Below are positions 33,921-46,944 of a DNA stretch of 64,000 nt, piece by piece. Origin of the DNA: an uncultured virus (IMG/VR IMGVR_UViG_3300016649_000564) (lineage: Duplodnaviria > Heunggongvirae > Uroviricota > Caudoviricetes); IMG/VR virus record IMGVR_UViG_3300016649_000564. One strand, written 5' to 3'. Each line of letters opens with the position of its first letter. Positions within the stretch are counted from its first letter, which is position 1. The notes beneath the pieces were generated by a model that searched no databases, had not been told where the DNA came from, and saw only the letters and a program-made list of their open reading frames with translations. Both the position numbers and the translations under genes were made by a program.

Positions 33921-34265
33921 TCATGCCTGACCGCTGCCCGAGGGCGGCACATCGCACACGCCCAACCGCTTGGCGGCCCAGCGTTCATACAGCCCGATGG
34001 CGACATCGGCGCCGGCCATCGCGGTGAGGCATCCGATGCTCCCTGCAGCCAGGACCGACATGCCCGAAGCGTGCAGCAACATCATGGTGGAAAGCCCGCA
34101 GACCACGCAGGCCCCGGACCGAAGGAGCAAGCGGCGAATCAAAGACCAGCCGCTTACCCCCGCTTTGTCGGCTCGCCATGCCTCGCCGGATATGCCGCCG
34201 ACCAGGGACAGCACGATCACCATCCAGATCGGCATATCAATAAGCGCTTGCTGCTCGTTCGTCAT
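33921..34265 (-). CDS. Holin
   Basis: Start at MTNEQQ; three hydrophobic segments; first gene of the late operon. Confidence 0.82.
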   Translation of the reverse strand: MTNEQQALIDMPIWMVIVLSLVGGISGEAWRADKAGVSGWSLIRRLLLRSGACVVCGLSTMMLLHASGMSVLAAGSIGCLTAMAGADVAIGLYERWAAKRLGVCDVPPSGSGQA

Positions 34266-34284
34266 CGCCCTACCCCATAAACGC

Positions 34285-34309
34285 AAAAACCCGGCGAAAT
34301 GGCCGGGTT
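34285..34309 (-). terminator. Terminator in late leader (tR'-like)
   Basis: AACCCGGC/GCCGGGTT stem with T-run immediately before the holin RBS. Confidence 0.65.
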
Positions 34310-34498
34310 CAGTGTGGTGGTGTGTCCCGCTGCTTGCGGTCGCACCTATCGAAGATGGGTACTTTTTACAGGTCGATTCCGGTGGCAGCAAGTGAGTTTT
34401 AATGCCATGGCGCAATACGGGTGCAATACAGGTATGACGCAGGTGCAACGCAGGGACAACGCATTCATTCGGCTATCGCTTCTGGTGCCCCGTCTGAC

Positions 34499-34768
34499 CT
34501 GTCCCACTACTCTTGATCGAAGTAGGACAGCTACAGGCGCCTGAATACGGGGCTCTGCCCTACTGTCCTACCTTTATTCCTTTTCTCTTGTGTATAGAGA
34601 GAAAGCTAAAAGCACGCGTGCGCGCCATGGGCGCGATTACGTGCCCGCTATGCTCATGTGTGCGTGGGGCGGATGAAGGTTGGACGGTAGGACAGGCCAA
34701 CAACGGCGTGGCCTGCGCCTGTCCAACTGCGCTAAATGGCAGTCGGACAAGGGCGGACAGTAGGACAG
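34499..34768. repeat. Iteron-like GTAGGACAG repeats, putative replication origin
   Basis: About nine exact or degenerate copies in both orientations around an AT-rich core. Confidence 0.6.
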
Positions 34769-34792
34769 AGGCACACGGGGTAACACCGGGGG

Positions 34793-35158
34793 TCATGCAG
34801 CCTTCCCCATCAGCATGCCGGCAATGTGTAGGTGGGCTTCGTGCAGACGCTGGTAGTAGGTATCCCGACCGCATCCGCAATGGGTGTACTTCTGCGAGAG
34901 GAAGCTTTCGTGGTTGCAGTAATGCTCACGCACAACGACCGACAGCTGGGGCGGCAAGTGCTTGTTGACGATCAGCTCGATGTCGGCCGATTCATCCAGC
35001 AGCACCCGACTGCCGCGTGTGCCGCGTATCAACTCGCCCTTGCATTCCATCAGCATGGCGATCATGTTGCCGCCGCTCGGCCCGCCCATGTTTTCCGGCA
35101 TGGGTGAGTGCAGATCCTGCGCCCATAGTTTGAGCATCTCGTCGATTCGCTTAATCAT
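34793..35158 (-). CDS. Putative late-gene regulator/antiterminator (Q position; PA0613-like)
   Basis: N-terminal L.LW, C-terminal HTH (TYYQRLH.AH); lies before the late leader terminator. Confidence 0.6.
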   Translation of the reverse strand: MIKRIDEMLKLWAQDLHSPMPENMGGPSGGNMIAMLMECKGELIRGTRGSRVLLDESADIELIVNKHLPPQLSVVVREHYCNHESFLSQKYTHCGCGRDTYYQRLHEAHLHIAGMLMGKAA

Positions 35159-37370
35159 CGAAGCAAGGCTCCTCGATCACCGACTGCTGCAACGCAGACG
35201 CACGCCCCCAACCCGCAGGCTTTACATAGGCCCAGGGCCGCACCCCACTCTTAGGCAATGCCGGCATGCGCCGCTTGCGCCAGCCCAACCGGTGCATGAT
35301 CGCCCCGACCCGCATCTGCTCAGGCTTGCCCCAATGGCCGAAGTCCAGCTTGAGCGCCTGGGTGAGGATCTCATTGCCGGTGGCGGTCTCGCCGATCTGC
35401 GACTCTTCCATCCAGGCCAAGATCGGCCCTTCCCATTCATCGACGACGAATCGCTCGTCTTGGGCCTCGGCGAACATCCAAGATTCGTCCTTGGCCACCC
35501 ACCAGATGTCGCCAGCCTCGAAGCAGAACAAAGCCTCAGCCCACAGCTGGTCGCGAATCTCGCGCAGTTGCTCCAGATCGACCTTGTTGCAGAACACCGG
35601 CCAATAGCGGCGATTGCCCGTGGCGTCCTTGAGGTATTCCTCTTGGTTGGTAGTGCCCACGAAAACACACTGGCGTGGCACGTCATTCGTTCGGCGGCCG
35701 TAGCTCTCGCGGTAGGTGTCGGTGGACGCGGAGAAGAACTGCTTGGCCTTGGTACTTTCAGCCTTGTTGAAGCTGTCCAGCTCGCCCAGCTCGACGATCC
35801 ACTTGCCGCGAATCGCCTGGAAGCTGTCCTTGTCGCCAAGGGCAAAGGGCGTGTCCATGAACCACTCGCCGCCGAGAACGCCCATAGCCGTGGACTTACC
35901 GGCGCCCTGCCCGCCTTCGAGGATCATCACCGAGTCAGCCTTGCAGCCAGGGCGCATTACCCGTGCGACCGCAGAGATCAGCCAGCGCTTGCCGACCTTG
36001 GCCGAGTACTCGCTGGACTGGACGCCCAGCACGTCGGTCAGCCAGGTATCAATGCGGGGAACGCGGTCCCACTCCAGCTTCTCCAGGTACTCGCGTACCG
36101 GGTGGAAGGCATGGTCGTGGGCAACAACGCTGACCGCCTCGATCACATGGGAAGCCTTCACGCGTAGGTTGTACTGCTGCGCGAGCCACTTCATCACGCG
36201 CATGTCATCGATGTCGGCCCAATCGCCGGCACCGCCGCCGAAGGGCGCAGACCGCAGCTTGACGATCTTGGAGCTGAACACGCTGTAGCCGATGACACCA
36301 GCCCAGCGTTCGTCGTTGCCCAGGATCAGCTCGACGTTTTGCATGTGCGCGATCAGAGAGCCGTTTTCGGTGCGGGCCAACTGGTCTTTCCAACCACCAG
36401 CTGCAGGAGGTTTGACCACCGCCAGCACCTGGCGGCGAACGGCCTCCAATCCCTCGGCGACGTGCAGGTCGTTGAAGTCGGTCCACTTGACCTCGCGCTC
36501 GCCGGAGAACACCGGGGCGACTACCTGACTGCCGACAACCAGCGCGGCATTGTTGGCCTTCTCTTCGCCTGGGTTCCAAGGGTCGCCGTTGGGGCGCTTG
36601 GTCTTCCAGTCATCGTCGCGGCAGATGATCAGCGGGCAACCAGGGAAACGCTCTCGCATGGCCTTGGAGACCGGCAGCAGGTTGCCCGCGTCGAAGGCGA
36701 TGGCAACAGTAAGCGACGTCGCCATGTGCAGGCTGGCGCCCGTGGCGTAGCCCTCACACACCAGCACCGGTTCGCCAGGCTCAGGGTGCGGGCCGATCAG
36801 GTGGAAGGCGCCTTCCTTCGACATGCCGTAGGGCCAATACGCCTTGTCGCGGCCGGTGTCGTCTTGCTTGGCGGGGAAAATCACCTGCAGGCCAACGATC
36901 TGGTCGCGCACATTGCACATAGGCACCAAAAATGCGCCAGTACGTGGCGCATAGCGAACCTTGAAGCCGACGATCTGCTTTCGATCCAGGTAGGCGCTCT
37001 TACCCTTCTCCGGCATGCGTTTGAACAGGCCGGCAGCACGGTTGGCCGCTCGGCGTGATGCGTTGGCAGCGATCTCGGCGGCCTTGCGCTTGGCATCTTC
37101 CTGGCGAGCGCGCATTACTTCGCGCTCTTCGGGACTCATGCGCCCGGCCTTGACCTTGATCTTTTGGGTGTCGCCGGAGCGCCAGTCACCGAAGCTGCCG
37201 AAGATTAGCGTTTCGTTTTTTTCGGTACGGTGTTCGTGGATGACGTACCAGCCGTTTTTTTCCTTGCCCTTGTCCTGGGTGGTTTTGCAGCGGGTGAGTT
37301 TGCCGAAGGCCAGGGGCTGAGCGGGTTCAAGGCCGTAGTCCGCGAACTGATTCAATACCTCATCGAGCAT
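35151..37370 (-). CDS. Toprim primase fused to VapE-family helicase
   Basis: CEGYATG, DDD, DFND Toprim motifs; GGQGAGKST Walker A; TGNRRYWP. Confidence 0.92.
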   Translation of the reverse strand: MLDEVLNQFADYGLEPAQPLAFGKLTRCKTTQDKGKEKNGWYVIHEHRTEKNETLIFGSFGDWRSGDTQKIKVKAGRMSPEEREVMRARQEDAKRKAAEIAANASRRAANRAAGLFKRMPEKGKSAYLDRKQIVGFKVRYAPRTGAFLVPMCNVRDQIVGLQVIFPAKQDDTGRDKAYWPYGMSKEGAFHLIGPHPEPGEPVLVCEGYATGASLHMATSLTVAIAFDAGNLLPVSKAMRERFPGCPLIICRDDDWKTKRPNGDPWNPGEEKANNAALVVGSQVVAPVFSGEREVKWTDFNDLHVAEGLEAVRRQVLAVVKPPAAGGWKDQLARTENGSLIAHMQNVELILGNDERWAGVIGYSVFSSKIVKLRSAPFGGGAGDWADIDDMRVMKWLAQQYNLRVKASHVIEAVSVVAHDHAFHPVREYLEKLEWDRVPRIDTWLTDVLGVQSSEYSAKVGKRWLISAVARVMRPGCKADSVMILEGGQGAGKSTAMGVLGGEWFMDTPFALGDKDSFQAIRGKWIVELGELDSFNKAESTKAKQFFSASTDTYRESYGRRTNDVPRQCVFVGTTNQEEYLKDATGNRRYWPVFCNKVDLEQLREIRDQLWAEALFCFEAGDIWWVAKDESWMFAEAQDERFVVDEWEGPILAWMEESQIGETATGNEILTQALKLDFGHWGKPEQMRVGAIMHRLGWRKRRMPALPKSGVRPWAYVKPAGWGRASALQQSVIEEPCFDD

Positions 37371-37587
37371 GGCGGGCATTCCTGGCTTCGTCGATGGATT
37401 GGCAAGTCACGCAATGCGTGCAGCCGGGGATCGCAACGCGGCGCGCTGTTGGGATCGGCGTGTCGCACTCTTCACAGAACATGAAGGAATGCGCGGGCAT
37501 GGTGGTTTTTTTCGCGTTTCGTGCGGCGAGCGCACGGTCCATACGCTCCTGCACCAGGTCATTTGCAAAGTCGATGTCGTCAGCCAC
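37360..37587 (-). CDS. TraR/DksA C4 zinc-finger protein
   Basis: GTG start (MADDIDFA); CEEC..IP.ARR.A.PGC..CVTCQ. Confidence 0.88.
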   Translation of the reverse strand: MADDIDFANDLVQERMDRALAARNAKKTTMPAHSFMFCEECDTPIPTARRVAIPGCTHCVTCQSIDEARNARHAR

Positions 37588-38098
37588 GGTCCGCCCCCCG
37601 AGTTGTCTGGTTGACGTATTGGGCGCGATTAAGCATCCCCAACAGCCCCTGGATTCCGCGAAATACCTGCAGGCGAATCTCAGCAAGTTCCTGATCGCTC
37701 ACAACGCCATCACCAATGCTCTTGGCCCAGGTGTCGGCCAGGTCAGCCACCTGCCTGAAGTACGAGGCAATACCGGTGGTCAGGGTCTCAGGCATGTCGC
37801 TGGTATAGGTTTCAGCCAGCTCTTGCCAGGTTGTGTCGCCGACCAATGCATGCACCGCATCGAGGATGCGGCGGTCCTTGGTCAATTCGAGGATCTCGCC
37901 GAACTCTTGAATGTTGACCGCGTGCGAGGGATGGGTGGGAGACAACTTGTGCTGCAGCGTGGTGGCATTGCGGCCGGTGGTGGCGGCGATTGCAGCGGCA
38001 CCGCCGGGATAGTCCCGTGCGGCGTGGTACAGGGCTAATTCGAGCGTCAGGACTTCCCTTTGCGCTCGATCAACACAGCTTAAAGCTACTCGGCTCAT
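37580..38098 (-). CDS. Phage regulatory CII-family protein
   Basis: YPGG..A.A......TLQHKLSP motif; downstream of cro. Confidence 0.8.
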   Translation of the reverse strand: MSRVALSCVDRAQREVLTLELALYHAARDYPGGAAAIAATTGRNATTLQHKLSPTHPSHAVNIQEFGEILELTKDRRILDAVHALVGDTTWQELAETYTSDMPETLTTGIASYFRQVADLADTWAKSIGDGVVSDQELAEIRLQVFRGIQGLLGMLNRAQYVNQTTRGADRG

Positions 38099-38158
38099 GG
38101 CATTAATCCTACTAAGTTGCCAGTGCCCCGCGACATGCAGTGGTGTTACATTTGCCGC

Positions 38159-38423
38159 GTGGCTTGAAAGGGCCCAAACGCCGGCCAGATCTTAGGGATC
38201 GAAACCGGCACCGTGCCGAGGCGAACAATCCGTTGTTCACCTCTGGCGCAACAGCTGCCCAATCTGTGGTGGAGAAGGCAGCAACCCGAGACATCCGTGT
38301 CTTGGCAGCGCGATAAAGGGAGGTGGTTTGCATGTGGTGTGCCCTCCTACCTTCGTCGCGACCCGACAGCACTGTGGTGGTGTGTGCCGGGAGGAACTGG
38401 GCGACCTTTGGGTCGCCTTTTTT
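38159..38423 (+). ncRNA. Predicted multi-hairpin small RNA antisense to the cro-cII interval
   Basis: Extended -10 TGTTACATT at 38144-38152, several hairpins (two UCCG loops, three UGUGGUG loops), intrinsic terminator at 38400-38423. Confidence 0.5.
38400..38423 (+). terminator. Intrinsic terminator on the + strand
   Basis: GGCGACC-TTTG-GGTCGCC followed by T6. Confidence 0.8.
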
Positions 38424-38427
38424 CTAT

Positions 38428-38688
38428 CTATGCTGCAGCTTTCTGAGGTGCCGATGCGTTGAGCAACCAGGCAGCATCGAATGCATTGCCCTTCTGCTCT
38501 GCGGCGCTCGCTAAAAGTTTGGCGTAGTGGGTTTCACCGGTGTAATCGGTGCGGGGAAGGCTGGCAGCCAAGCGCCATTTATTGAGCGCCTGATAGCTCC
38601 TTTCACACACTTTGGCGGCGGCACCAATGCCGCCTACTGCTTCAAATGCGAACGCGATGGCGTTCGGAAAATCTGCGGGGTCCAACAT
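38428..38688 (-). CDS. Cro-like repressor
   Basis: GGAGG RBS; GG..AAA..C..SYQALNKW HTH; divergent from cI. Confidence 0.85.
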   Translation of the reverse strand: MLDPADFPNAIAFAFEAVGGIGAAAKVCERSYQALNKWRLAASLPRTDYTGETHYAKLLASAAEQKGNAFDAAWLLNASAPQKAAA

Positions 38689-38703
38689 GGCAACCTCCAT
38701 TTA

Positions 38704-38774
38704 TCAACTCACGGTTGATATTAACATCAACTGACTATTGCGCAAGCCCTGTGAGAGCATCAACTCATGGTTGA
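38704..38774. promoter_or_regulatory. OR-like operators (TCAAC-N5-GTTGA) and cro promoter
   Basis: Perfect sites at 38704-38718 and 38760-38774, degenerate site at 38727-38741. Confidence 0.8.
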
Positions 38775-39492
38775 TAAGAACGAACTACGGGCAGCTTTCA
38801 CGGCGCGCCTTCACGAAGCACTCGACGATGCCGGTGTACGCACCCGGGGACGTGGGGCGGATATTCATAGGCATTTGGTGAAGGTTGGGGCGGAAAAAAG
38901 CCCACAGGCCATTAGTAAGTGGCTGAATTGTGAATCCGTCCCTGAGCCCGACAGCATGGCTGTACTGTGTTCTTGGCTGAAAGTGCGGAGGGAGTGGCTG
39001 GAGTATGGCGTGTTGCCTAAAGAGCAAACAGGGGGCAGTAATATCCGCCAGTTCAGCGCAGCGGGCGAGAGTAATGTCCTAGATGTTACCCAGCGCTTCG
39101 GAAAGGTTCCGTTGATTTCGTGGGTACAAGCCGGCGCATGGTGTGAGTCAAACTTTGAGCTGCATGACGGTGAGTCTTGGCTTTCTTGCCCTGTACCTAT
39201 CAGCAAGAGCGGTTATGCACTGAAAGTACTTGGCGACTCTATGACCAATCCTGGTCCAGGTCGCAGCTACCCAACAGGTTGCATTATTTTCGTAGACCCA
39301 GAGGCTGAATCCAAGACTGGTGATCGAGTCATTGCTAGGGTTCCTCGAACTAACGAAGCCACTTTTAAGGTGCTGGTAGAGGATGCAGGCAGACAGTTTT
39401 TAAGACCTATTAACCCGCAATACCCAATCATTGACATTACGGAGGAAACACATATTTGTGGAAAAGTGGTGGGATCTTTTATTCCTGAATGA
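38767..39492 (+). CDS. CI-like repressor (HTH + S24 autopeptidase)
   Basis: VPLISWVQAG cleavage site, GDSM Ser, TFK Lys. Confidence 0.95.
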   Translation: MVDKNELRAAFTARLHEALDDAGVRTRGRGADIHRHLVKVGAEKSPQAISKWLNCESVPEPDSMAVLCSWLKVRREWLEYGVLPKEQTGGSNIRQFSAAGESNVLDVTQRFGKVPLISWVQAGAWCESNFELHDGESWLSCPVPISKSGYALKVLGDSMTNPGPGRSYPTGCIIFVDPEAESKTGDRVIARVPRTNEATFKVLVEDAGRQFLRPINPQYPIIDITEETHICGKVVGSFIPE

Positions 39493-39518
39493 ATCGCCCG
39501 ACTATAAATCCATCTGCA

Positions 39519-40643
39519 TCAGTGTGGAAACATATGGCTAAAATTCGATGTCTTACGCGCCTTTTGAAAGTCACGTATTTGAATATCTGAAATCATTTCA
39601 TAGTCGTCATATGCTGTACTTTGGTACGCGCCCCGCCACTCCCAAGAAACCCTCAGAAAATCTGACTTATCCATATGCTTTAATAAAGAATATTTCTCGA
39701 CATAGTACTTAAGGCCGAAACCCGTTGGGGTCAGACAATTCAGATACAAAACCTTCAGTTCATCATCTGAAATCTGCGCTCTTAGAATATTGCAATACTG
39801 CCTTCGCTGAAAATATTCCATTCTAAGTTGACGCTTCGATTTCCTGCCTTTATCGGCCCCTTCCTCATATACCTCAAGCTTAAAGTTATCGATCAATTTG
39901 AGTATTTGATACATATTCCTGAAATACTGCGATAGCAGAATTTTACTTTCTTGACTTATGCAGATTTTTACCGCCTCTGATAATTTACCAAAACCTTCGA
40001 TGTTCAATCTCTCTTGCTCAGCTTTAAACTCTTGCCAAGACCCATGATTCTCGAAGTCAAAAAATCTAACCTCGACCGGGTCATTCTCATTAACCAGATC
40101 GAGTACGCCATCTACGATTACTTTAAACCTGTTTCCGTCTCCTAGACGATAGCTCGTTCTAAGTCCCTCAGCTAGACGACCATGAACATCTAAAAGCCGA
40201 AACAAAACGGATTCAAAATTCTGCCTTTCGAAAACAGTTGTTTGCTTATCTTGAATTCGGTTTGCAATTCTAGTCTCTTCCTTGGCTTCCTTAAGCTCTT
40301 TACTTTGCATCTTAATGGTAAATAACACGGCAATCAAAGCCATGAAACTCAATAACGGATTCAGCACGCCGCCAAAAAAATCGCCGATTTGCCCCATATA
40401 CTCTAGTTGTTTCGTATTAGAAAACTTGAGCAAAGGAAAATCGATATTTACTGAAATCTTAAGCCAAAGGACTAACGCAACAAATATGATCAATAGTACG
40501 CTAACAGCTAGAAATACGGGTCCAAATCTCATCCAGGACACTTTCTCATAAAAAGTTATCAAAGCTTTCCTAAAAATTATAGATATTTTTTCATTGCGTA
40601 GCCGTTTTCTGTATTCGGCCGCAAGGCGTTTTTCAACTGCCAT
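39519..40643 (-). CDS. Putative abortive-infection membrane protein (putAbiC-like) moron
   Basis: TM, GQIGDFFGG.LNP, YFRNMYQILK, Y.NILRAQ.S..EL, EKY.LL motifs; AT-rich. Confidence 0.75.
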   Translation of the reverse strand: MAVEKRLAAEYRKRLRNEKISIIFRKALITFYEKVSWMRFGPVFLAVSVLLIIFVALVLWLKISVNIDFPLLKFSNTKQLEYMGQIGDFFGGVLNPLLSFMALIAVLFTIKMQSKELKEAKEETRIANRIQDKQTTVFERQNFESVLFRLLDVHGRLAEGLRTSYRLGDGNRFKVIVDGVLDLVNENDPVEVRFFDFENHGSWQEFKAEQERLNIEGFGKLSEAVKICISQESKILLSQYFRNMYQILKLIDNFKLEVYEEGADKGRKSKRQLRMEYFQRRQYCNILRAQISDDELKVLYLNCLTPTGFGLKYYVEKYSLLKHMDKSDFLRVSWEWRGAYQSTAYDDYEMISDIQIRDFQKARKTSNFSHMFPH

Positions 40644-40772
40644 ATAAATTCCCCGTGCTTTATCCATAAGCAAGCGTTGTGCAGGCGCCCACAAAGTGGG
40701 GAATGCTATCCAAAAGCTATTACACAGTCCACAACCCAGCCCACCTCAAAAAATCTGAAACCAAGCAATTAA

Positions 40773-40812
40773 TCAACCAGAGGTTGACATTATTCAACCG
40801 CTGGTTGATATT
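40773..40812 (+). promoter_or_regulatory. pL/OL: sigma70 promoter overlapped by two operators
   Basis: TTGACA(40784)-17 bp-GATATT(40807); TCAAC-N5-GTTGA at 40773-40787 and 40794-40808. Confidence 0.85.
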
Positions 40813-40847
40813 TTGCCCACTCTCCCACCACAGAGCGAGGCAACACC

Positions 40848-41024
40848 ATGCACACCACAGCCACCCTGCACGTCCATCCGGCCGCTGCGAACCCCTCCCG
40901 CATATTCGAAATCCGCCGCCTGGCGCAAAACAGCGGCTGCGCCTTCATCTCGTCCAGACCCAAGCTGAAACAGCGCACCGCACCCGCCACCTTCGATCCA
41001 AACGGCGGAGGGCAAGCAGCATGA
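40848..41024 (+). CDS. Small hypothetical protein (58 aa, MHTTATLHVHP...), absent from the ORF track
   Basis: GAGG RBS, first ORF after pL, ATGA overlap with the next gene. Confidence 0.65.
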   Translation: MHTTATLHVHPAAANPSRIFEIRRLAQNSGCAFISSRPKLKQRTAPATFDPNGGGQAA

Positions 41025-41602
41025 GCAAGTACAAACTCGACAATCGCACCCTGACCCTGCTCAAGGCACAGGTCAACTTGACCGAAACCTTCAACCACCT
41101 CCTGCGCGCCGAGACGCAGCGTGAAGCTCTGGCCTTCCGCCTGAAAGTCGAACGCCGCAAAGTCGACACGCACTTCACTGTTGAGCTGGACAGCGAACGC
41201 CACACGCTGACCCTGACCAACAGCAAGAAGATGCACCTCAAGCTTGCAGACTTCATTGAAGAGATCGTCAACGGGCCAACCACCTCTGCCGATCCATCGC
41301 CTTTGCCACATGCAGACCGCCGCTACGGTGTGTTCGAGACTGAACACCGGCAGCAGGTATTCGACCTAGTGCAAACCGGCGGCGCCCTCAGCCTCGATAT
41401 GGGCTTTGAACAACCGATCAACCTGGCAATCCACCGTAACAAAACCCGCGCAGGCATCACCACCATCATGAGCATCGGCGTCAGGAAGCCGCGTACCAAG
41501 TGCTTCACGGTGTACGGCAGTGACGTGGAGATCTACTCCATGGTCGCCGAATCCATCACCCATCTGGCCGCTGTGGCGACACCCGCCGCGCATGCGGCCT
41601 AG
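41021..41602 (+). CDS. Phage hypothetical protein
   Basis: Start at MSKYKL with GGAGG RBS. Confidence 0.75.
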   Translation: MSKYKLDNRTLTLLKAQVNLTETFNHLLRAETQREALAFRLKVERRKVDTHFTVELDSERHTLTLTNSKKMHLKLADFIEEIVNGPTTSADPSPLPHADRRYGVFETEHRQQVFDLVQTGGALSLDMGFEQPINLAIHRNKTRAGITTIMSIGVRKPRTKCFTVYGSDVEIYSMVAESITHLAAVATPAAHAA

Positions 41603-41611
41603 GAGGCCGAG

Positions 41612-41896
41612 ATGGAACGTAGCCTCGAAAAAGCCGCCAAGTACTTTGGCCTCACCCGCCCCAAACTGATCCTACTCATGCGCCAAAAGGGCCTGCTCAA
41701 CGACCGCAACCTACCGGCCTTCCCGGTGCGGGATCGCGAGTATCTACGAGTAAAGAACAGCAACTGGTTCCATGCGAACGCCGGCATGCAGTACAGCCAG
41801 TCGACCAAGGTCCGACAAGCCGGCATCCGCTGGCTCGCCGACCAACCGGGGCTCGAACTGCCAGCCATCCCAGCAGACAACCGTGACGTGGCCTAG
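41612..41896 (+). CDS. Antirepressor KilAC-domain-like protein
   Basis: AAK.FG.....L...MRQKG, TKV...GI.WL. Confidence 0.7.
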   Translation: MERSLEKAAKYFGLTRPKLILLMRQKGLLNDRNLPAFPVRDREYLRVKNSNWFHANAGMQYSQSTKVRQAGIRWLADQPGLELPAIPADNRDVA

Positions 41897-42101
41897 AGAG
41901 TACGCCCGCCAGATCGTCGCCATGCGCACACGCGAGGAGCGCAACGCTGCGCTCCTCGAAGTGCCGGAGCATCTGCGGGAGCTGACCAAACGCCATTGCC
42001 TGAATGCTTGGAACCACCCTTCACGACTCAAACGCAAGGAGGCCGCAGCCCATGAGCAACAATATCCAGACACCGCTACGACTGCTACCCGCCCCGGATA
42101 G
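41883..42101 (+). CDS. Small phage hypothetical protein
   Basis: GTG start overlapping the previous stop; fills the gap in the operon. Confidence 0.5.
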   Translation: MTWPREYARQIVAMRTREERNAALLEVPEHLRELTKRHCLNAWNHPSRLKRKEAAAHEQQYPDTATTATRPG

Positions 42102-42378
42102 TGCCACCGTCGAGATGCTGCACCAACTCTTCGGCGACGTGCTTATCCCCCTGGAAAAGCTGCGCGTGCATTACTTCAAGAACCTCAACGAAAAGACCTT
42201 CACCGAGGCGATCGCCAACGGGCGTATTCAACTGCCGGTGACCACCCTGGACCACAGCGTCAAGGCGATCCGGTATGCCCACATCAAACACGTCGCAGCA
42301 CTGATCGACATCCGTGCTTACCGAGCGGACGAAGACATGCCTCGGCCACAAAACGATTCAACCGAACAAAACCAGTAA
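42052..42378 (+). CDS. Pyocin activator PrtN-family protein
   Basis: T..ML...FG..LIPL..L...YF, I.LPV, .A.LID. Confidence 0.75.
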   Translation: MSNNIQTPLRLLPAPDSATVEMLHQLFGDVLIPLEKLRVHYFKNLNEKTFTEAIANGRIQLPVTTLDHSVKAIRYAHIKHVAALIDIRAYRADEDMPRPQNDSTEQNQ

Positions 42379-42426
42379 CCCAGACGGCTGCCACCACCAG
42401 CCACGAAACTACCAGGAGCACACCAC

Positions 42427-42828
42427 ATGACTGCAATTCAAATTTGCGCACTGATCAGCATCGTAATCGCCGCCGGTATCCTCTACTGGGTCGGGTATCG
42501 AGGCGGCCTCACTGACGGCAAAAATGATGGCTACGACGAAGGCTATTCCGACGGCTACGTCTTGGGCCGGGACGAAGCTTCAGCCGCATACGCAGCCTCT
42601 ATCAAAGAAATGTCAGATCAATGCATGCGAACTGAACTCCTATTGAGCCGGGAACCGCAAGACCGATACACCCTTCTCGCCATTGCCGAAAAGCTGAAGC
42701 TCGCCGCAGACACTTTCCGCGCCGTTAGATCCGAAAGCCAAGCAACTCAGACACTTGCCCTACGTGAAAAAGCACTGAACATGGCTGCGCTGATGGATCG
42801 TTTCGAACTGAGGAGGGAAGCCGCATGA
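42427..42828 (+). CDS. Hypothetical protein with N-terminal membrane anchor
   Basis: AGGAG RBS; TM followed by GY..G repeats. Confidence 0.75.
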   Translation: MTAIQICALISIVIAAGILYWVGYRGGLTDGKNDGYDEGYSDGYVLGRDEASAAYAASIKEMSDQCMRTELLLSREPQDRYTLLAIAEKLKLAADTFRAVRSESQATQTLALREKALNMAALMDRFELRREAA

Positions 42829-44914: not shown

Positions 44915-44953
44915 AAAGTTTCGGAACGCCTACCCGAAAGTTTCGGAACGCCT
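44915..44953 (+). repeat. 17-bp direct repeat, probable integrase arm-type sites
   Basis: AAAGTTTCGGAACGCCT at 44915-44931 and 44937-44953. Confidence 0.8.
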
Positions 44954-44993
44954 CTCAAAAACCGTCGTATTCCACCCAAACCCCAGAAACACA

Positions 44994-45016
44994 AAAGCCC
45001 CGCATTGCGGGGCTTT
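44994..45016 (-). terminator. Terminator downstream of the tRNA 3' end (possibly bidirectional)
   Basis: AAAGCCCCGC-ATT-GCGGGGCTTT. Confidence 0.8.
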
Positions 45017-45027
45017 CGTTTGAATCT

Positions 45028-45088
45028 TGGCGGGAAACCAGGGATTCGAACCCTGGGAACGCTATTAACGTTCGCCGGTTTTCAAGAC
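45028..45088 (-). tRNA. 3' fragment of tRNA-Ser(TGA) forming the att junction between the two prophages; not a complete tRNA
   Basis: Minus strand: anticodon loop CTTGAAA, long variable arm, GGTTCGAATCC, GCCA end; 5' half and D-arm missing. Confidence 0.88.
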
Positions 45089-45106
45089 TGCCGGCTTAAT
45101 CTTATC

Positions 45107-45206
45107 TATCAATAACTTAGGATCAGATCATTTCCGCAAAATAACATTTTTGGCTGATTGGAAAGCCGCGCAGATCAAAGGGCGCGCATCAGGTTGCGGA
45201 AATGAT
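45107..45206. promoter_or_regulatory. att arm of prophage 2: IHF site plus 13-bp inverted repeat
   Basis: TATCAATAACTTA fits WATCAANNNNTTR; ATCATTTCCGCAA at 45127-45139 inverted at 45194-45206. Confidence 0.65.
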
Positions 45207-45248: not shown

Positions 45249-46526
45249 CTATTTGCATGCCACCGACCAAAGCTGATCAAGCTTCGTGGTGTAGCTCTGG
45301 CTCATCATTTCACGCCGCATCCCCCAGTCAGGATTCGTCGGCACACTGGCCGACCGCAGCGTTCCCCTTCCCCACCGTTCGTTGATCTGGTCCAGCACGG
45401 TCATCACTCTGGTGGCCTCGGCCGGCTGTGACACGGCGAATAGATCATCCGTGTATTCGCCTGGCTGGCACAGGTTGAGCAACATCACCTCAGCCTTGCT
45501 GTACTTGAAGCCTGGTCGAAAAATTCGATCCATGGCGTCCACCGCCGCCTTGGTTAGCAATCGCACGTCGTCGGTGGGAAACGGCATATCCACCACCACG
45601 CCATTGGCATACTTCGCTTCCTCCGGATTGAACATCCCTGTACGGATGCAGACACGGATCTTTTTGCACAACGAGTTCTGTGCGCGCAGCTTTTCCGATG
45701 CCCGCATCATGTAGGTGGCCACGGCTTCCTTGATCGGGGCCAACTCAGTCAGCCGCTTTCCGAACATCCGGCTGCAGCATATTTCCTGCTTTGGCGGATC
45801 GGGCTCGTCCAGCTCTAGGCAAGACGTGCCGGCAAGCTCACGCGCCGTCTTTTCGATCACTACGCTAAATTTCTTTCGAAGCGTCCACGGATCAGCCTTG
45901 GCCAAGTCCATCGCTGTCTTGATTCCCATTGCGTCAAGGTGAAGTTTCATCTTCCGCCCGACACCCCACACCTCGCAAACGTCTGTATTGCGCAACACCC
46001 AGTCACGCTTGACGGGGTCGGTGATGTTCACTATACCGCCAGTCTGGGCTTGCAGGCGTTTCGCCGTGTGGTTGGCCAGCTTGGCCAGGGTCTTCGTGCT
46101 GGCGATTCCAACGCCGACCGGGATGCCGGTGCACTGAAGAACGCGTGCGCGAATTTGGCGTCCCAGAGCATCCAGACCTTCGATACCGGTCAGATCGGCG
46201 AAGGCTTCGTCAATGCTGTAGATCTCCACAGCGGGCACCATGCTCTCGATCAGCGTCATGACTCGCTCGCTCATGTCGCCGTACAGCGCATAGTTGGATG
46301 AGAACGGCACTATTCCGTGCTGCTTGAGCTTATGCTTGATCTGGAAGTACGGTTCGCCCATTTTAATGAAAGGCTTTGCGTCGTAGCTCCTGGCGATTAC
46401 GCAGCCGTCGTTATTGCTGAGGACGACGATGGGCACCTTGGCCAAATCCGGGCGAAACACGCGCTCGCAGCTGGCATAGAAGCTGTTGCAGTCGATCAGG
46501 GCAAATACTGGTGCCGACTTAGACAT
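45249..46526 (-). CDS. umuC: Y-family DNA polymerase V catalytic subunit (UmuC/RulB)
   Basis: DCNSFYASCE, VLSNNDGC, YSIDEAF, C-terminal W.MRR...S..YTT. Confidence 0.96.
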   Translation of the reverse strand: MSKSAPVFALIDCNSFYASCERVFRPDLAKVPIVVLSNNDGCVIARSYDAKPFIKMGEPYFQIKHKLKQHGIVPFSSNYALYGDMSERVMTLIESMVPAVEIYSIDEAFADLTGIEGLDALGRQIRARVLQCTGIPVGVGIASTKTLAKLANHTAKRLQAQTGGIVNITDPVKRDWVLRNTDVCEVWGVGRKMKLHLDAMGIKTAMDLAKADPWTLRKKFSVVIEKTARELAGTSCLELDEPDPPKQEICCSRMFGKRLTELAPIKEAVATYMMRASEKLRAQNSLCKKIRVCIRTGMFNPEEAKYANGVVVDMPFPTDDVRLLTKAAVDAMDRIFRPGFKYSKAEVMLLNLCQPGEYTDDLFAVSQPAEATRVMTVLDQINERWGRGTLRSASVPTNPDWGMRREMMSQSYTTKLDQLWSVACK

Positions 46527-46944
46527 GGCTGCGCACGGTGCTGGTGATAACGCCCCAGATCGACAGCTCGTCCCCCTCTAAAATGTACCGCGCCGGGTAT
46601 TTCGGATTCTCCGATAAAAGAATCACTTCTTTACCGCGCTTGCACAGTCGCTTGCAGATGGGGTCATTGTTCAGCAGGGCCACCACCACATGCCCGTGGG
46701 CCGGCTCAATAGACCGATCCACAACTGCCAAGTCTCCCTCGAAAATACCTGCACCCTGCATGCTCTCACCGGTAATGGCGATCAGATAGACGTGCGGCGC
46801 CCTGATGTTTAAAACCTCATCCAGTGAGATGTGCTGCTCTATATGGTCAGCTGCTGGCGAGGGAAATCCCGCAGGGACACGAAACGAGCAGTAAGGCAGC
46901 TTCGTGCCGCCCTCGGCAATAGGACCTAAAATGGAAAAGCTCAT
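46519..46944 (-). CDS. umuD: DNA polymerase V accessory subunit (UmuD/RulA)
   Basis: AGFPSPA, G.SM, CKRL, WGV. Confidence 0.95.
   Translation of the reverse strand: MSFSILGPIAEGGTKLPYCSFRVPAGFPSPAADHIEQHISLDEVLNIRAPHVYLIAITGESMQGAGIFEGDLAVVDRSIEPAHGHVVVALLNNDPICKRLCKRGKEVILLSENPKYPARYILEGDELSIWGVITSTVRSHV

Follow-up and report, generated by a model that had tools for sequence, protein, structure and literature searches.

A conserved structured element between cro and cII of Pseudomonas-type prophages is a candidate trans-acting small RNA gene for early-left control

The cro-cII interval and the genes around it

The window, a stretch of 64,000 nucleotides from an uncultured virus (IMG/VR record IMGVR_UViG_3300016649_000564), is a lambdoid prophage of Pseudomonas type. 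At its switch, cI (38767..39492, + strand; peptidase S24, PF00717) diverges from a cro-like repressor gene (38428..38700, - strand), with phrog_35 and phrog_4 cited for the two genes jointly. The cII gene (37580..38098, - strand) encodes a member of the Phage_CP76, 186-type CII family (PF06892, E 6.6e-21; phrog_101), and the nearest CII proteins come from P. fluorescens-group genomes. Behind cro, the order is 186-type CII, TraR-like finger, VapE-type primase, holin, and terminase; a late leader of ~520 nt (34265-34790, - strand) carries conserved stem-loops ahead of a terminator and the holin. The promoter of the pL operon (40784-40812) is placed past cI and an AbiC-like moron. The operon consists of a 58-aa ORF (40848), a 193-aa ORF, a gene with an ANT/KilAC antirepressor domain (PF03374, E 3e-6; a putative antirepressor), a PrtN-like gene, a 133-aa gene (42427), a phosphatase-like gene, xis, and int. 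Its first two genes overlap by ATGA, upstream of the ANT/KilAC-domain gene. The 58-aa protein has no Pfam family, and in the ESM Atlas both it and the 133-aa protein match unnamed clusters only. The moron (39519-40694, - strand), which lies between cI and pL, carries a putative abortive-infection domain (PF16872, E 3e-20); relatives have different genes at this position, or none. TCAAC-N4-GGTTGA palindromes are repeated at pR and pL (38700-38780 and 40770-40812) and are probably CI/Cro operators.

The initial annotation had drawn attention to the cro-cII interval, describing there an extended -10 at 38144, a + strand terminator at 38400-38423, and, between the two, three hairpin loops with the motif TGTGGTG. 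All of these are borne out: TGTTACATT stands at 38144-38152, a stem at 38399-38418 is followed by a run of T, and TGTGGTG occurs at 38265, 38333, and 38373, each time at the tip of a hairpin. For the third hairpin, the single-sequence minimum free energy fold draws an alternative pairing; the stem named originally has two-sided changes at six of its 11 pairs among relatives. The motif is found 16 times in the 64 kb, against 7.9 expected (1/100 shuffles as high), and seven of these copies fall in the switch region 34313-42427. Folding of the cro-cII interval gives a z score of -4.1.

On the + strand, the interval begins with a putative sigma-70 promoter (38123..38152), consisting of a weak -35 (38123-38128), an 18-nt spacer, and TG plus the -10 TACATT (38147-38152), at what we take to be the pRE/pE position. 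The -10 is flanked by the inverted repeat H0 (38125..38163; two-sided changes at 4/11 pairs), which on the - strand folds into a hairpin ~45 nt upstream of the cII start, its loop reading CACCAC. Next comes a candidate small RNA of ~265 nt (38159..38423, + strand) with six hairpins and a terminator, delineated by covariation and a peak in contig depth, its probable 5' end being placed from the -10. Three of its hairpins expose what we call guide loops on the + strand. H3 (38254..38282) carries loop A (38263-38272), which is complementary to the pL 5' leader and whose columns are 100% conserved in 56 sequences. H5 (38309..38360; two-sided changes at 14 of 20 pairs) carries loop B (38331-38342), which complements the Shine-Dalgarno (SD) spacer and AUG of the 42427 gene as well as codons 1-4 of the first pL gene, and which changes together with its targets. 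H6 (38362..38391) carries loop C (38373-38380), again 100% conserved in the 56 sequences and complementary to CCACCAC hairpin loops of the pL mRNA. Two further hairpins are best described on the - strand, that is, on the cro-cII mRNA: H2 (38213..38249), with the loop ACGGAU at 38233-38228, and H4 (38286..38305), with the same loop at 38298-38293, closed by a C-G pair and with two-sided changes at 8/8 pairs. The intrinsic terminator (38399..38423, + strand) ends at the cro stop, and its U tract is invariant in 56 relatives. Hairpins are often trailed by ACC or AAC in the linkers, in the window as in Halomonas and second-subfamily elements, which suggests that the element grew by duplication of one hairpin unit; these linkers are also reminiscent of tRNA-like processing signals.

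Conservation, strand, and transcript depth

We gathered 307 loci via CII, three named phages included; a blastn search with the element found no match among 50,697 phage records. In 56 close relatives (<94% identity), 92.7% of the cells of an 88-pair structure are paired. Two-sided changes are seen at 43/88 pairs, compared with 21.8 in shuffles (0/500 as high) and 11-19 in slid controls, over which the structure is favoured because it was drawn from the window sequence. RNAalifold's own structure has two-sided changes at 32/86 pairs, but mis-pairs the third loop. Covariation across related prophages, suggested at the outset as a check, favours a structured RNA. Loops are 97-100% conserved in these relatives versus 81-90% for stems, and three TGTGGTG are present in 133 of 145 distinct family-1 elements; the initial annotation had named loops not conserved in related phages as a ground for refutation, and the three UGUGGUG loops are in fact nearly invariant.

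A sequence model of family 1 gave at least 33 matches in at least 27 of 151 Pseudomonas species genomes (best 11 candidates per genome), and by coordinate comparison 33/33 of these lie directly upstream of a CII homologue. CII-family matches occur in 113/401 genomes, in a table with one unpublished row (G155) on which no other result depends. We checked 40 such CII loci by eye and found the element in 31; the nine without it served as controls. Isolated phages carrying the element are Haddon, U5, Turba, Meadow, PG1, pAN, and H4907, and the records of Turba, Meadow, PG1, and pAN have no RNA annotated at its position. Single loci vary the plan: L193 has an additional hairpin block separating cII from the promoter-bearing element, and L165 repeats the A and GGA hairpins inside the element. 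Three distant, class-level CII homologues (L311-L313) have GC-rich hairpins at the same position, one with a U-tract terminator, and a crude test gave no match of at least 9 nt between these and SD-led starts.

The strand of the functional RNA has to be judged on evidence other than base complementarity, since complementarity to the + strand RNA is the same thing as identity to the - strand mRNA, so that match statistics fix neither strand nor mechanism. A G-U pair had been offered initially as an argument for the + strand; this proves weak, as counts of G-U against A-C per helix are mixed. The two strands fold about equally well (z of -3.5 and -3.4), and a wobble test on the trans duplexes is flat (104 G-U versus 120 A-C). 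Three features do favour the + strand: the positioned -10, the invariant U tract, and the behaviour of duplicated elements. At a distance of 49-52 nt from the CII ATG, the pattern TAnnnT occurs in 54 of 63 representatives that bear the element, compared with 130 of 1942 background windows, and six of the nine misses are promoterless duplicate copies. A terminator pattern matched 35 of the 63, ~4 of them spuriously; by this pattern the second subfamily has no U-tract terminator, and many P. aeruginosa loci also lack a clear U tract.

A tandem duplicate of the whole element with its promoter context occurs in 15 loci (L214-L216, L218-L227, L232, and L268), which remained after removing four false positives from 19 candidates and probably represent one event. 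The cro-proximal copy has the -10 in 15/15 and, by pattern, the terminator in 14/15, and its loop A matches the pL leader. The cII-proximal copy has the -10 in 0/15; its loops A and C have drifted and its loop B is retained. The loop of H0 (GTGGTG or GTGATG) is also retained in copies without a -10. ANGGA loops stay with the cII-proximal copy, and the promoter copy has no H2 and, by pattern, an H4 GGA loop in 3/15. This split of strand features between the copies suggests that both strands are under selection. In L216 and L219, the B and C hairpins are repeated too.

RNA depth was taken from four metatranscriptome runs of four studies (4 of 24 listed), which were runs found with the element region. 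In all four, the highest contig depth lies at bin 38214-38514. Depth over the element versus cII was 20440 versus 264 (run X2), 128 versus 10 (X9), 207 versus 56 (X8), and 4.5 versus 1.7 (X11), a ratio of 3–75×. These figures add up, across organisms, unstranded contigs of related phages; DNA may be present in them, and they are unsuited to ranking genes. One contig of X9 begins at 38173. The runs give no cover over cI and the moron, owing to the divergence of those genes in the sampled phages. The depth peak is a hint of a separate, abundant transcript over the element.

Complementarity to early-left translation starts

The complement CACCACA had been reported on the sense strand around the first pL start codon, across the start of gene 42427, and within the late leader. 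We confirmed it at 40826, 40853, 42421, and 34313, and find exact both the match of 12 nt over the 42427 start and that of 13 nt in the late leader. At the first pL gene, target 1A (40820..40835, + strand; -28..-13 of the ATG at 40848) is a hairpin whose loop reads CCACCAC; it lies at the 5' end of the pL transcript and is conserved as far as P. aeruginosa and Halomonas phages. Loop A has a 10-nt match to this leader in the window (at -23) and of up to 18 nt in relatives. Target 1B (40850..40859, + strand), in the first codons, is a 10-nt complement of loop B. The arrangement recurs at the 133-aa gene, where target 2B (42418..42429, + strand), spanning the SD spacer and AUG, is a 12-nt complement of loop B, and where an upstream site had been missed before: target 2A (42386..42402, + strand), a 5-bp hairpin with its CCACCAC loop at 42391-42397, whose stem varies in compensatory fashion across relatives while the loop is kept. 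Target 1A lies 27 nt upstream of 1B, and 2A lies 29 nt upstream of 2B. Ranking of the 71 SD-led starts of the window puts 40848 and 42427 first and second after the element's own antisense.

For a broader test, we clustered loci at 90% into 72 clusters, set aside nine judged by eye to lack the element, and kept 63 representatives. An exact complement of at least 10 nt to the locus's own element was found in 116 of 503 pL start windows, compared with 12.5 for shuffled, 12 for mid-ORF, and 13 for other-strand controls. At least one matching pL start is present in 59/63 loci, and the nine control loci without the element have 2 matches in 74 start windows. The loci are related and not 63 independent trials, so these counts overstate independence.

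The late-leader match (34313..34325, - strand) lies in a CA-rich linker ahead of the late terminator and is a doubtful target. Among 129 holin-upstream regions, some from distant clades and a few with a start that is probably misplaced, CACCACA is present in 59 and the 13-nt match in 13. Of the initial proposal that loop-initiated pairing forms an RNA layer silencing early and late transcripts, the late part finds no support, and the early-left part gains from target enrichment, co-change, the positioned promoter, and contig depth, with silencing as its presumed outcome.

Loops and targets change together. In five loci (the L075 group), two changes in loop B are mirrored at the 42427-like start in 5/5, and the group is nested among unchanged relatives on a CII tree (a quick tree, from which L275 was left out for its wrong start). 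A form of loop B with U occurs in 12 loci, and in 11 of them the first pL gene carries the corresponding A; the remaining one departs at the next base. The pair L129/L152 and the Halomonas locus L204, with a 16-nt match, are further separate nested cases. Across larger distances, GUGGUGG A loops persist in P. aeruginosa and Halomonas phages, whose CII is 37-40% identical, together with clade-specific B loops and targets; in the P. aeruginosa phages the complement of loop A is 15 nt long and takes in both arms of the leader hairpin. The second CII subfamily has a like arrangement with other loops, GUGAGAG / GUGCUGUG, and matching targets; its elements give 1.73 matches per own locus versus 0-0.36 on other classes. 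The pattern also holds in four held-out phages (Turba, Meadow, PG1, and pAN), at up to five starts each, and a single base difference between PG1 and pAN is compensated.

When elements were swapped within a class, cognate pairs exceeded swapped pairs in three of four classes (p 0.024, 0.033, and 0.005; in the fourth, p 0.51). One locus, L047, is a counter-example in which loop B changed and its target did not. Conversely, among 128 loci that share the common loop B, the 42427-like start departs in 11, in a tally where loop B of 34 rows was assigned as common from the sequences after the pattern had picked the wrong loop. Both guide cores are kept by 122 of 123 close loci and both target cores by 106, incomplete loci included. 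The cI ORFs of close loci, picked automatically and in some cases perhaps wrongly, form 28 groups at 80% identity.

Proposed action, alternatives, and known antisense RNAs

We conclude that the cro-cII gap most likely encodes an abundant, undescribed small RNA, whose loops match and have changed along with the starts of early phage genes; this points to RNA control of dormancy in addition to the repressor protein. The element is real and conserved, its RNA is probably highly expressed, and comparative support for trans pairing on early-left starts is strong. Pairing of a + strand RNA with the pL start regions is likely; that it clamps these starts as a repressor, our main reading, we put at about 0.7. 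An RNA of ~265 nt would be made from the promoter beside the cII start, on the strand opposite to cro-cII, and would end by the cro stop; we infer that it is abundant in lysogens. Its G/U-rich loops would begin pairing with C/A-rich loops and spacers of the pL mRNA. At each main target, two sites are spaced by 27-29 nt: a CCACCAC hairpin loop on the upstream side, which would serve guide A or C, and the SD spacer, AUG, or first codons, which would serve guide B. Pairing at both would clamp the ribosome-binding region. The first pL gene and the 42427 gene would be clamped in this way, and the block on the first gene would be polar on the coupled downstream genes, including the ANT/KilAC antirepressor-domain gene. 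In addition to CI, such an RNA could serve as a lock, at the post-transcriptional level, on early-left expression that is leaky or incoming, and on induction the cro-cII mRNA, its perfect antisense, might titrate it.

The DNA probably serves two RNAs, since the cro-cII mRNA strand carries two hairpins of RsmA/RsmE type. The loop of H2 reads ANGGA in 55 of 56 aligned relatives, with T-C-C invariant and the N position varying, and that of H4 in 38/56. These are the loops that read UCCG on the + strand, and because they vary mainly at the fourth base and the closing pair, their variation fits - strand ANGGA better than a + strand UNCG tetraloop, a reading we therefore rejected. In PMC4005645, RsmE is described as binding the hcnA loop ACGGAU, and the stem-borne ANGGAX hexaloop as the high-affinity form. 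H2 and H4 match hcnA-type RsmE/CsrA operators in having this conserved hexaloop on a stem, but differ in lying away from the SD: there are two sites only, ~130 and ~195 nt upstream of the cII start. ANGGA loops occur in the Pseudomonas family-1 clades, P. aeruginosa included; Halomonas elements have none, and the second subfamily none except for one doubtful case. Rsm binding to these mRNA hairpins can be proposed as a candidate interaction. The CsrB-like sponge that the initial annotation had offered as its alternative fails for the UGUGGUG loops, which track mRNA start regions; a candidate Csr/Rsm link is seen in the two UCCG stems, on the opposite strand. A broader and more tentative form of this idea, possible though in our estimate improbable, is a switch with two faces, one strand providing a multi-guide RNA common to heteroimmune phages and the other a cII leader and antidote that reads host Gac/Rsm through its two RsmE-type hairpins. 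As guides are common to phages with unlike CI repressors, cross-phage silencing of the early-left operon would be possible.

Of the explanations that compete with repression by the + strand RNA, an unlikely one that still accounts for several observations is that the - strand cro-cII mRNA does the work in the manner of nut/boxB sites, with a phage or host protein binding CACCAC loops there and in the pL mRNA and causing antitermination or translational repression. In lambda, nutR sits between cro and cII and nutL just after pL, positions that the element and the pL sites mirror, and targets 1A and 2A are hairpin loops resembling the - strand loops of the element. The equal folding of the strands, the flat wobble counts, and the retention of loop B and the H0 loop in the promoterless duplicate also suit this explanation. 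Lambdoid nut sites consist of boxA and a boxB hairpin and go with a first pL protein that is arginine-rich and N-like; here the position fits, the first pL protein is the 58-aa product described above, and no N-like protein was identified among the prophage proteins in Pfam, PHROG, and ESM Atlas comparisons. Binding of a protein to the loops would not explain why matches extend 12-18 nt into flanks, SD spacers, and AUG, with flank variation that tracks the cognate phage, nor would it explain the conserved -10 and U tract of the + strand or a depth far above that of the co-transcribed cII. Moreover, the DNA past the terminator is unrelated among relatives, so it can contain no conserved - strand promoter.

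Quite unlikely, too, is that the same + strand RNA and the same pairing activate rather than repress, with loop A opening the leader hairpin and promoting early-left translation, for example at establishment or induction. The SD of the first pL gene lies within reach of the outer stem of target 1A, which can cover it, and the 15-nt pairing of loop A in P. aeruginosa phages would extend over both hairpin arms. According to PMC4825925, IsrK of Gifsy-1 offers a precedent, pairing in trans near the site of ribosome binding for a small upstream ORF that is AUGA-coupled to the next gene, and thereby activating it. The first two pL genes overlap in the same way (ATGA), but IsrK differs from the element in being an activator and the 5' part of its own target mRNA. 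Against activation, loop B covers the SD spacer and AUG, or the first codons, at most targets; the likely pL start (~40819) would omit part of the outer stem; and the high depth in environmental samples fits an RNA of lysogens.

Very unlikely is a role in cis only, as an attenuator-bearing leader on a cI transcript of pRE/pE type or as an RsmA/RsmE-controlled cII leader, the pL matches being incidental. The promoter position, the many second-subfamily and P. aeruginosa loci in which a clear U tract is missing, and the conserved ANGGA loops on the cII leader strand, which stay with the cII-proximal duplicate, would all agree with it, but the 9-fold enrichment at pL starts and the co-change across clades are left unexplained; a cis role may exist as a second function of the same DNA. 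Least credible of all is conservation owed to a protein-binding UGUGGUG motif, as in a CsrB-like sponge, or to the minus-strand ORF 38112-38333: there are three near-invariant identical loops, and the ORF has an SD and ATG in the window, but loop sequences differ by clade in step with mRNA start regions, the + strand has no conserved series of GGA loops of the kind seen in CsrB/RsmZ (the - strand has two), and the ORF reaches its full 73-74 codons in only 8/56 relatives, with segment lengths spread evenly over three frames. Codon-driven conservation by this ORF had been set at the outset as a refuting condition, and its outcome speaks for the RNA. Two further ideas, that GUGG loops pair with tRNA CCA ends in T-box fashion or are Chi-like DNA sites, were dropped on account of the second subfamily, which has other loops with matching mRNA sites.

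Repression by guide loops would give the element the closest likeness to the antisense immunity RNAs of phages P1 and P4, from which the initial annotation had thought it unrelated in sequence. Rfam bears this out, with no family match over the element: none at gathering score in the window or 10 relatives, none over the element at E <= 5, and, at E <= 1, none over the element of four named phages; the isrK model likewise has no match in the window. In P1, C4 exposes two single-stranded regions that pair with two mRNA sites, and it lies in, and is processed from, the operon that it controls; C4-type RNAs are matured by RNase P. The C4 RNA of P1/P7 (immI) controls the antirepressor as a second layer of immunity, through an upstream small gene, icd, needed for ant, as set out in PMC8201110. 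Like C4, the element appears to be a phage RNA with exposed loops complementary to two mRNA sites and with phage-specific co-variation, and a candidate further likeness is the ANT/KilAC-domain gene behind a small coupled ORF. It differs in its place in the cro-cII gap, where it has a -10 to itself and, in this clade, also a terminator ahead of cro, and in targeting another operon, at two to five starts, with up to three or more loops.

The CA RNA of N15 and the CI RNA of SfV are further antisense immunity RNAs of the P4 CI kind. Whereas C4, CI, and CA are encoded in and processed from the regulated transcript, the targets of the element lie in the pL operon beyond cI. P4 CI pairs with seqA and seqC and brings about premature termination in the lysogen, in the account given by PMC4825925 and PMC10111431. 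The element would resemble it in two-site antisense pairing and in that target 1A, like seqA, stands at the very 5' end of the transcript; CI, however, is cut from the regulated transcript, between its targets, whereas the guides would sit on a transcript separate from their targets, which are translation starts. Lambdoid switches have small antisense RNAs too, among them lambda OOP and aQ, and P22 sar, which represses antirepressor translation (PMC12197685). These are cis-antisense to one target, while the element overlaps no coding sequence and matches in trans, 2.5-4 kb away. In a term search of the PMC12197685 supplement, cro and cII are absent, and the best two of four Pseudomonas rows are PAK_P4 RNAs. 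The literature covered, mostly titles and abstracts with few subscription papers, yielded no description of the element RNA, although an unnamed entry in a catalogue of small or structured RNAs is possible. The best reading, then, is of an RNA that works like P1 C4 and P4 CI yet stands outside that family by model match and gene position.

Accounts of the lambdoid lysis-lysogeny decision cast it as a circuit of proteins and assign the cro-cII gap to terminators, nutR, and pRE. Widespread prophages of Pseudomonas and Halomonas appear to hold there a trans-acting guide RNA with several targets, whose natural guide and target variants are ready-made compensatory pairs. If guides cross-react, immunity groups in these phages would not be set by CI alone; if the locus is two-faced, relatives that evade the CI of a resident prophage could still have their early-left operon silenced by that prophage; and if the Rsm hairpins are functional, host Gac/Rsm would feed into the developmental decision of the phage.

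Prophages of both subfamilies, with differing guide sets, are found in one genome (L140 and L314 of G001). In the window itself, the segment directly past the integrase (44934-45137) contains a tRNA-like remnant, with weak Rfam scores only and no tRNA by ARAGORN, and a bidirectional terminator, and is probably the attachment site. Adjoining this end of the prophage is a umuDC-like error-prone polymerase pair (45249-46944, - strand), recognised from its ORF sequences.
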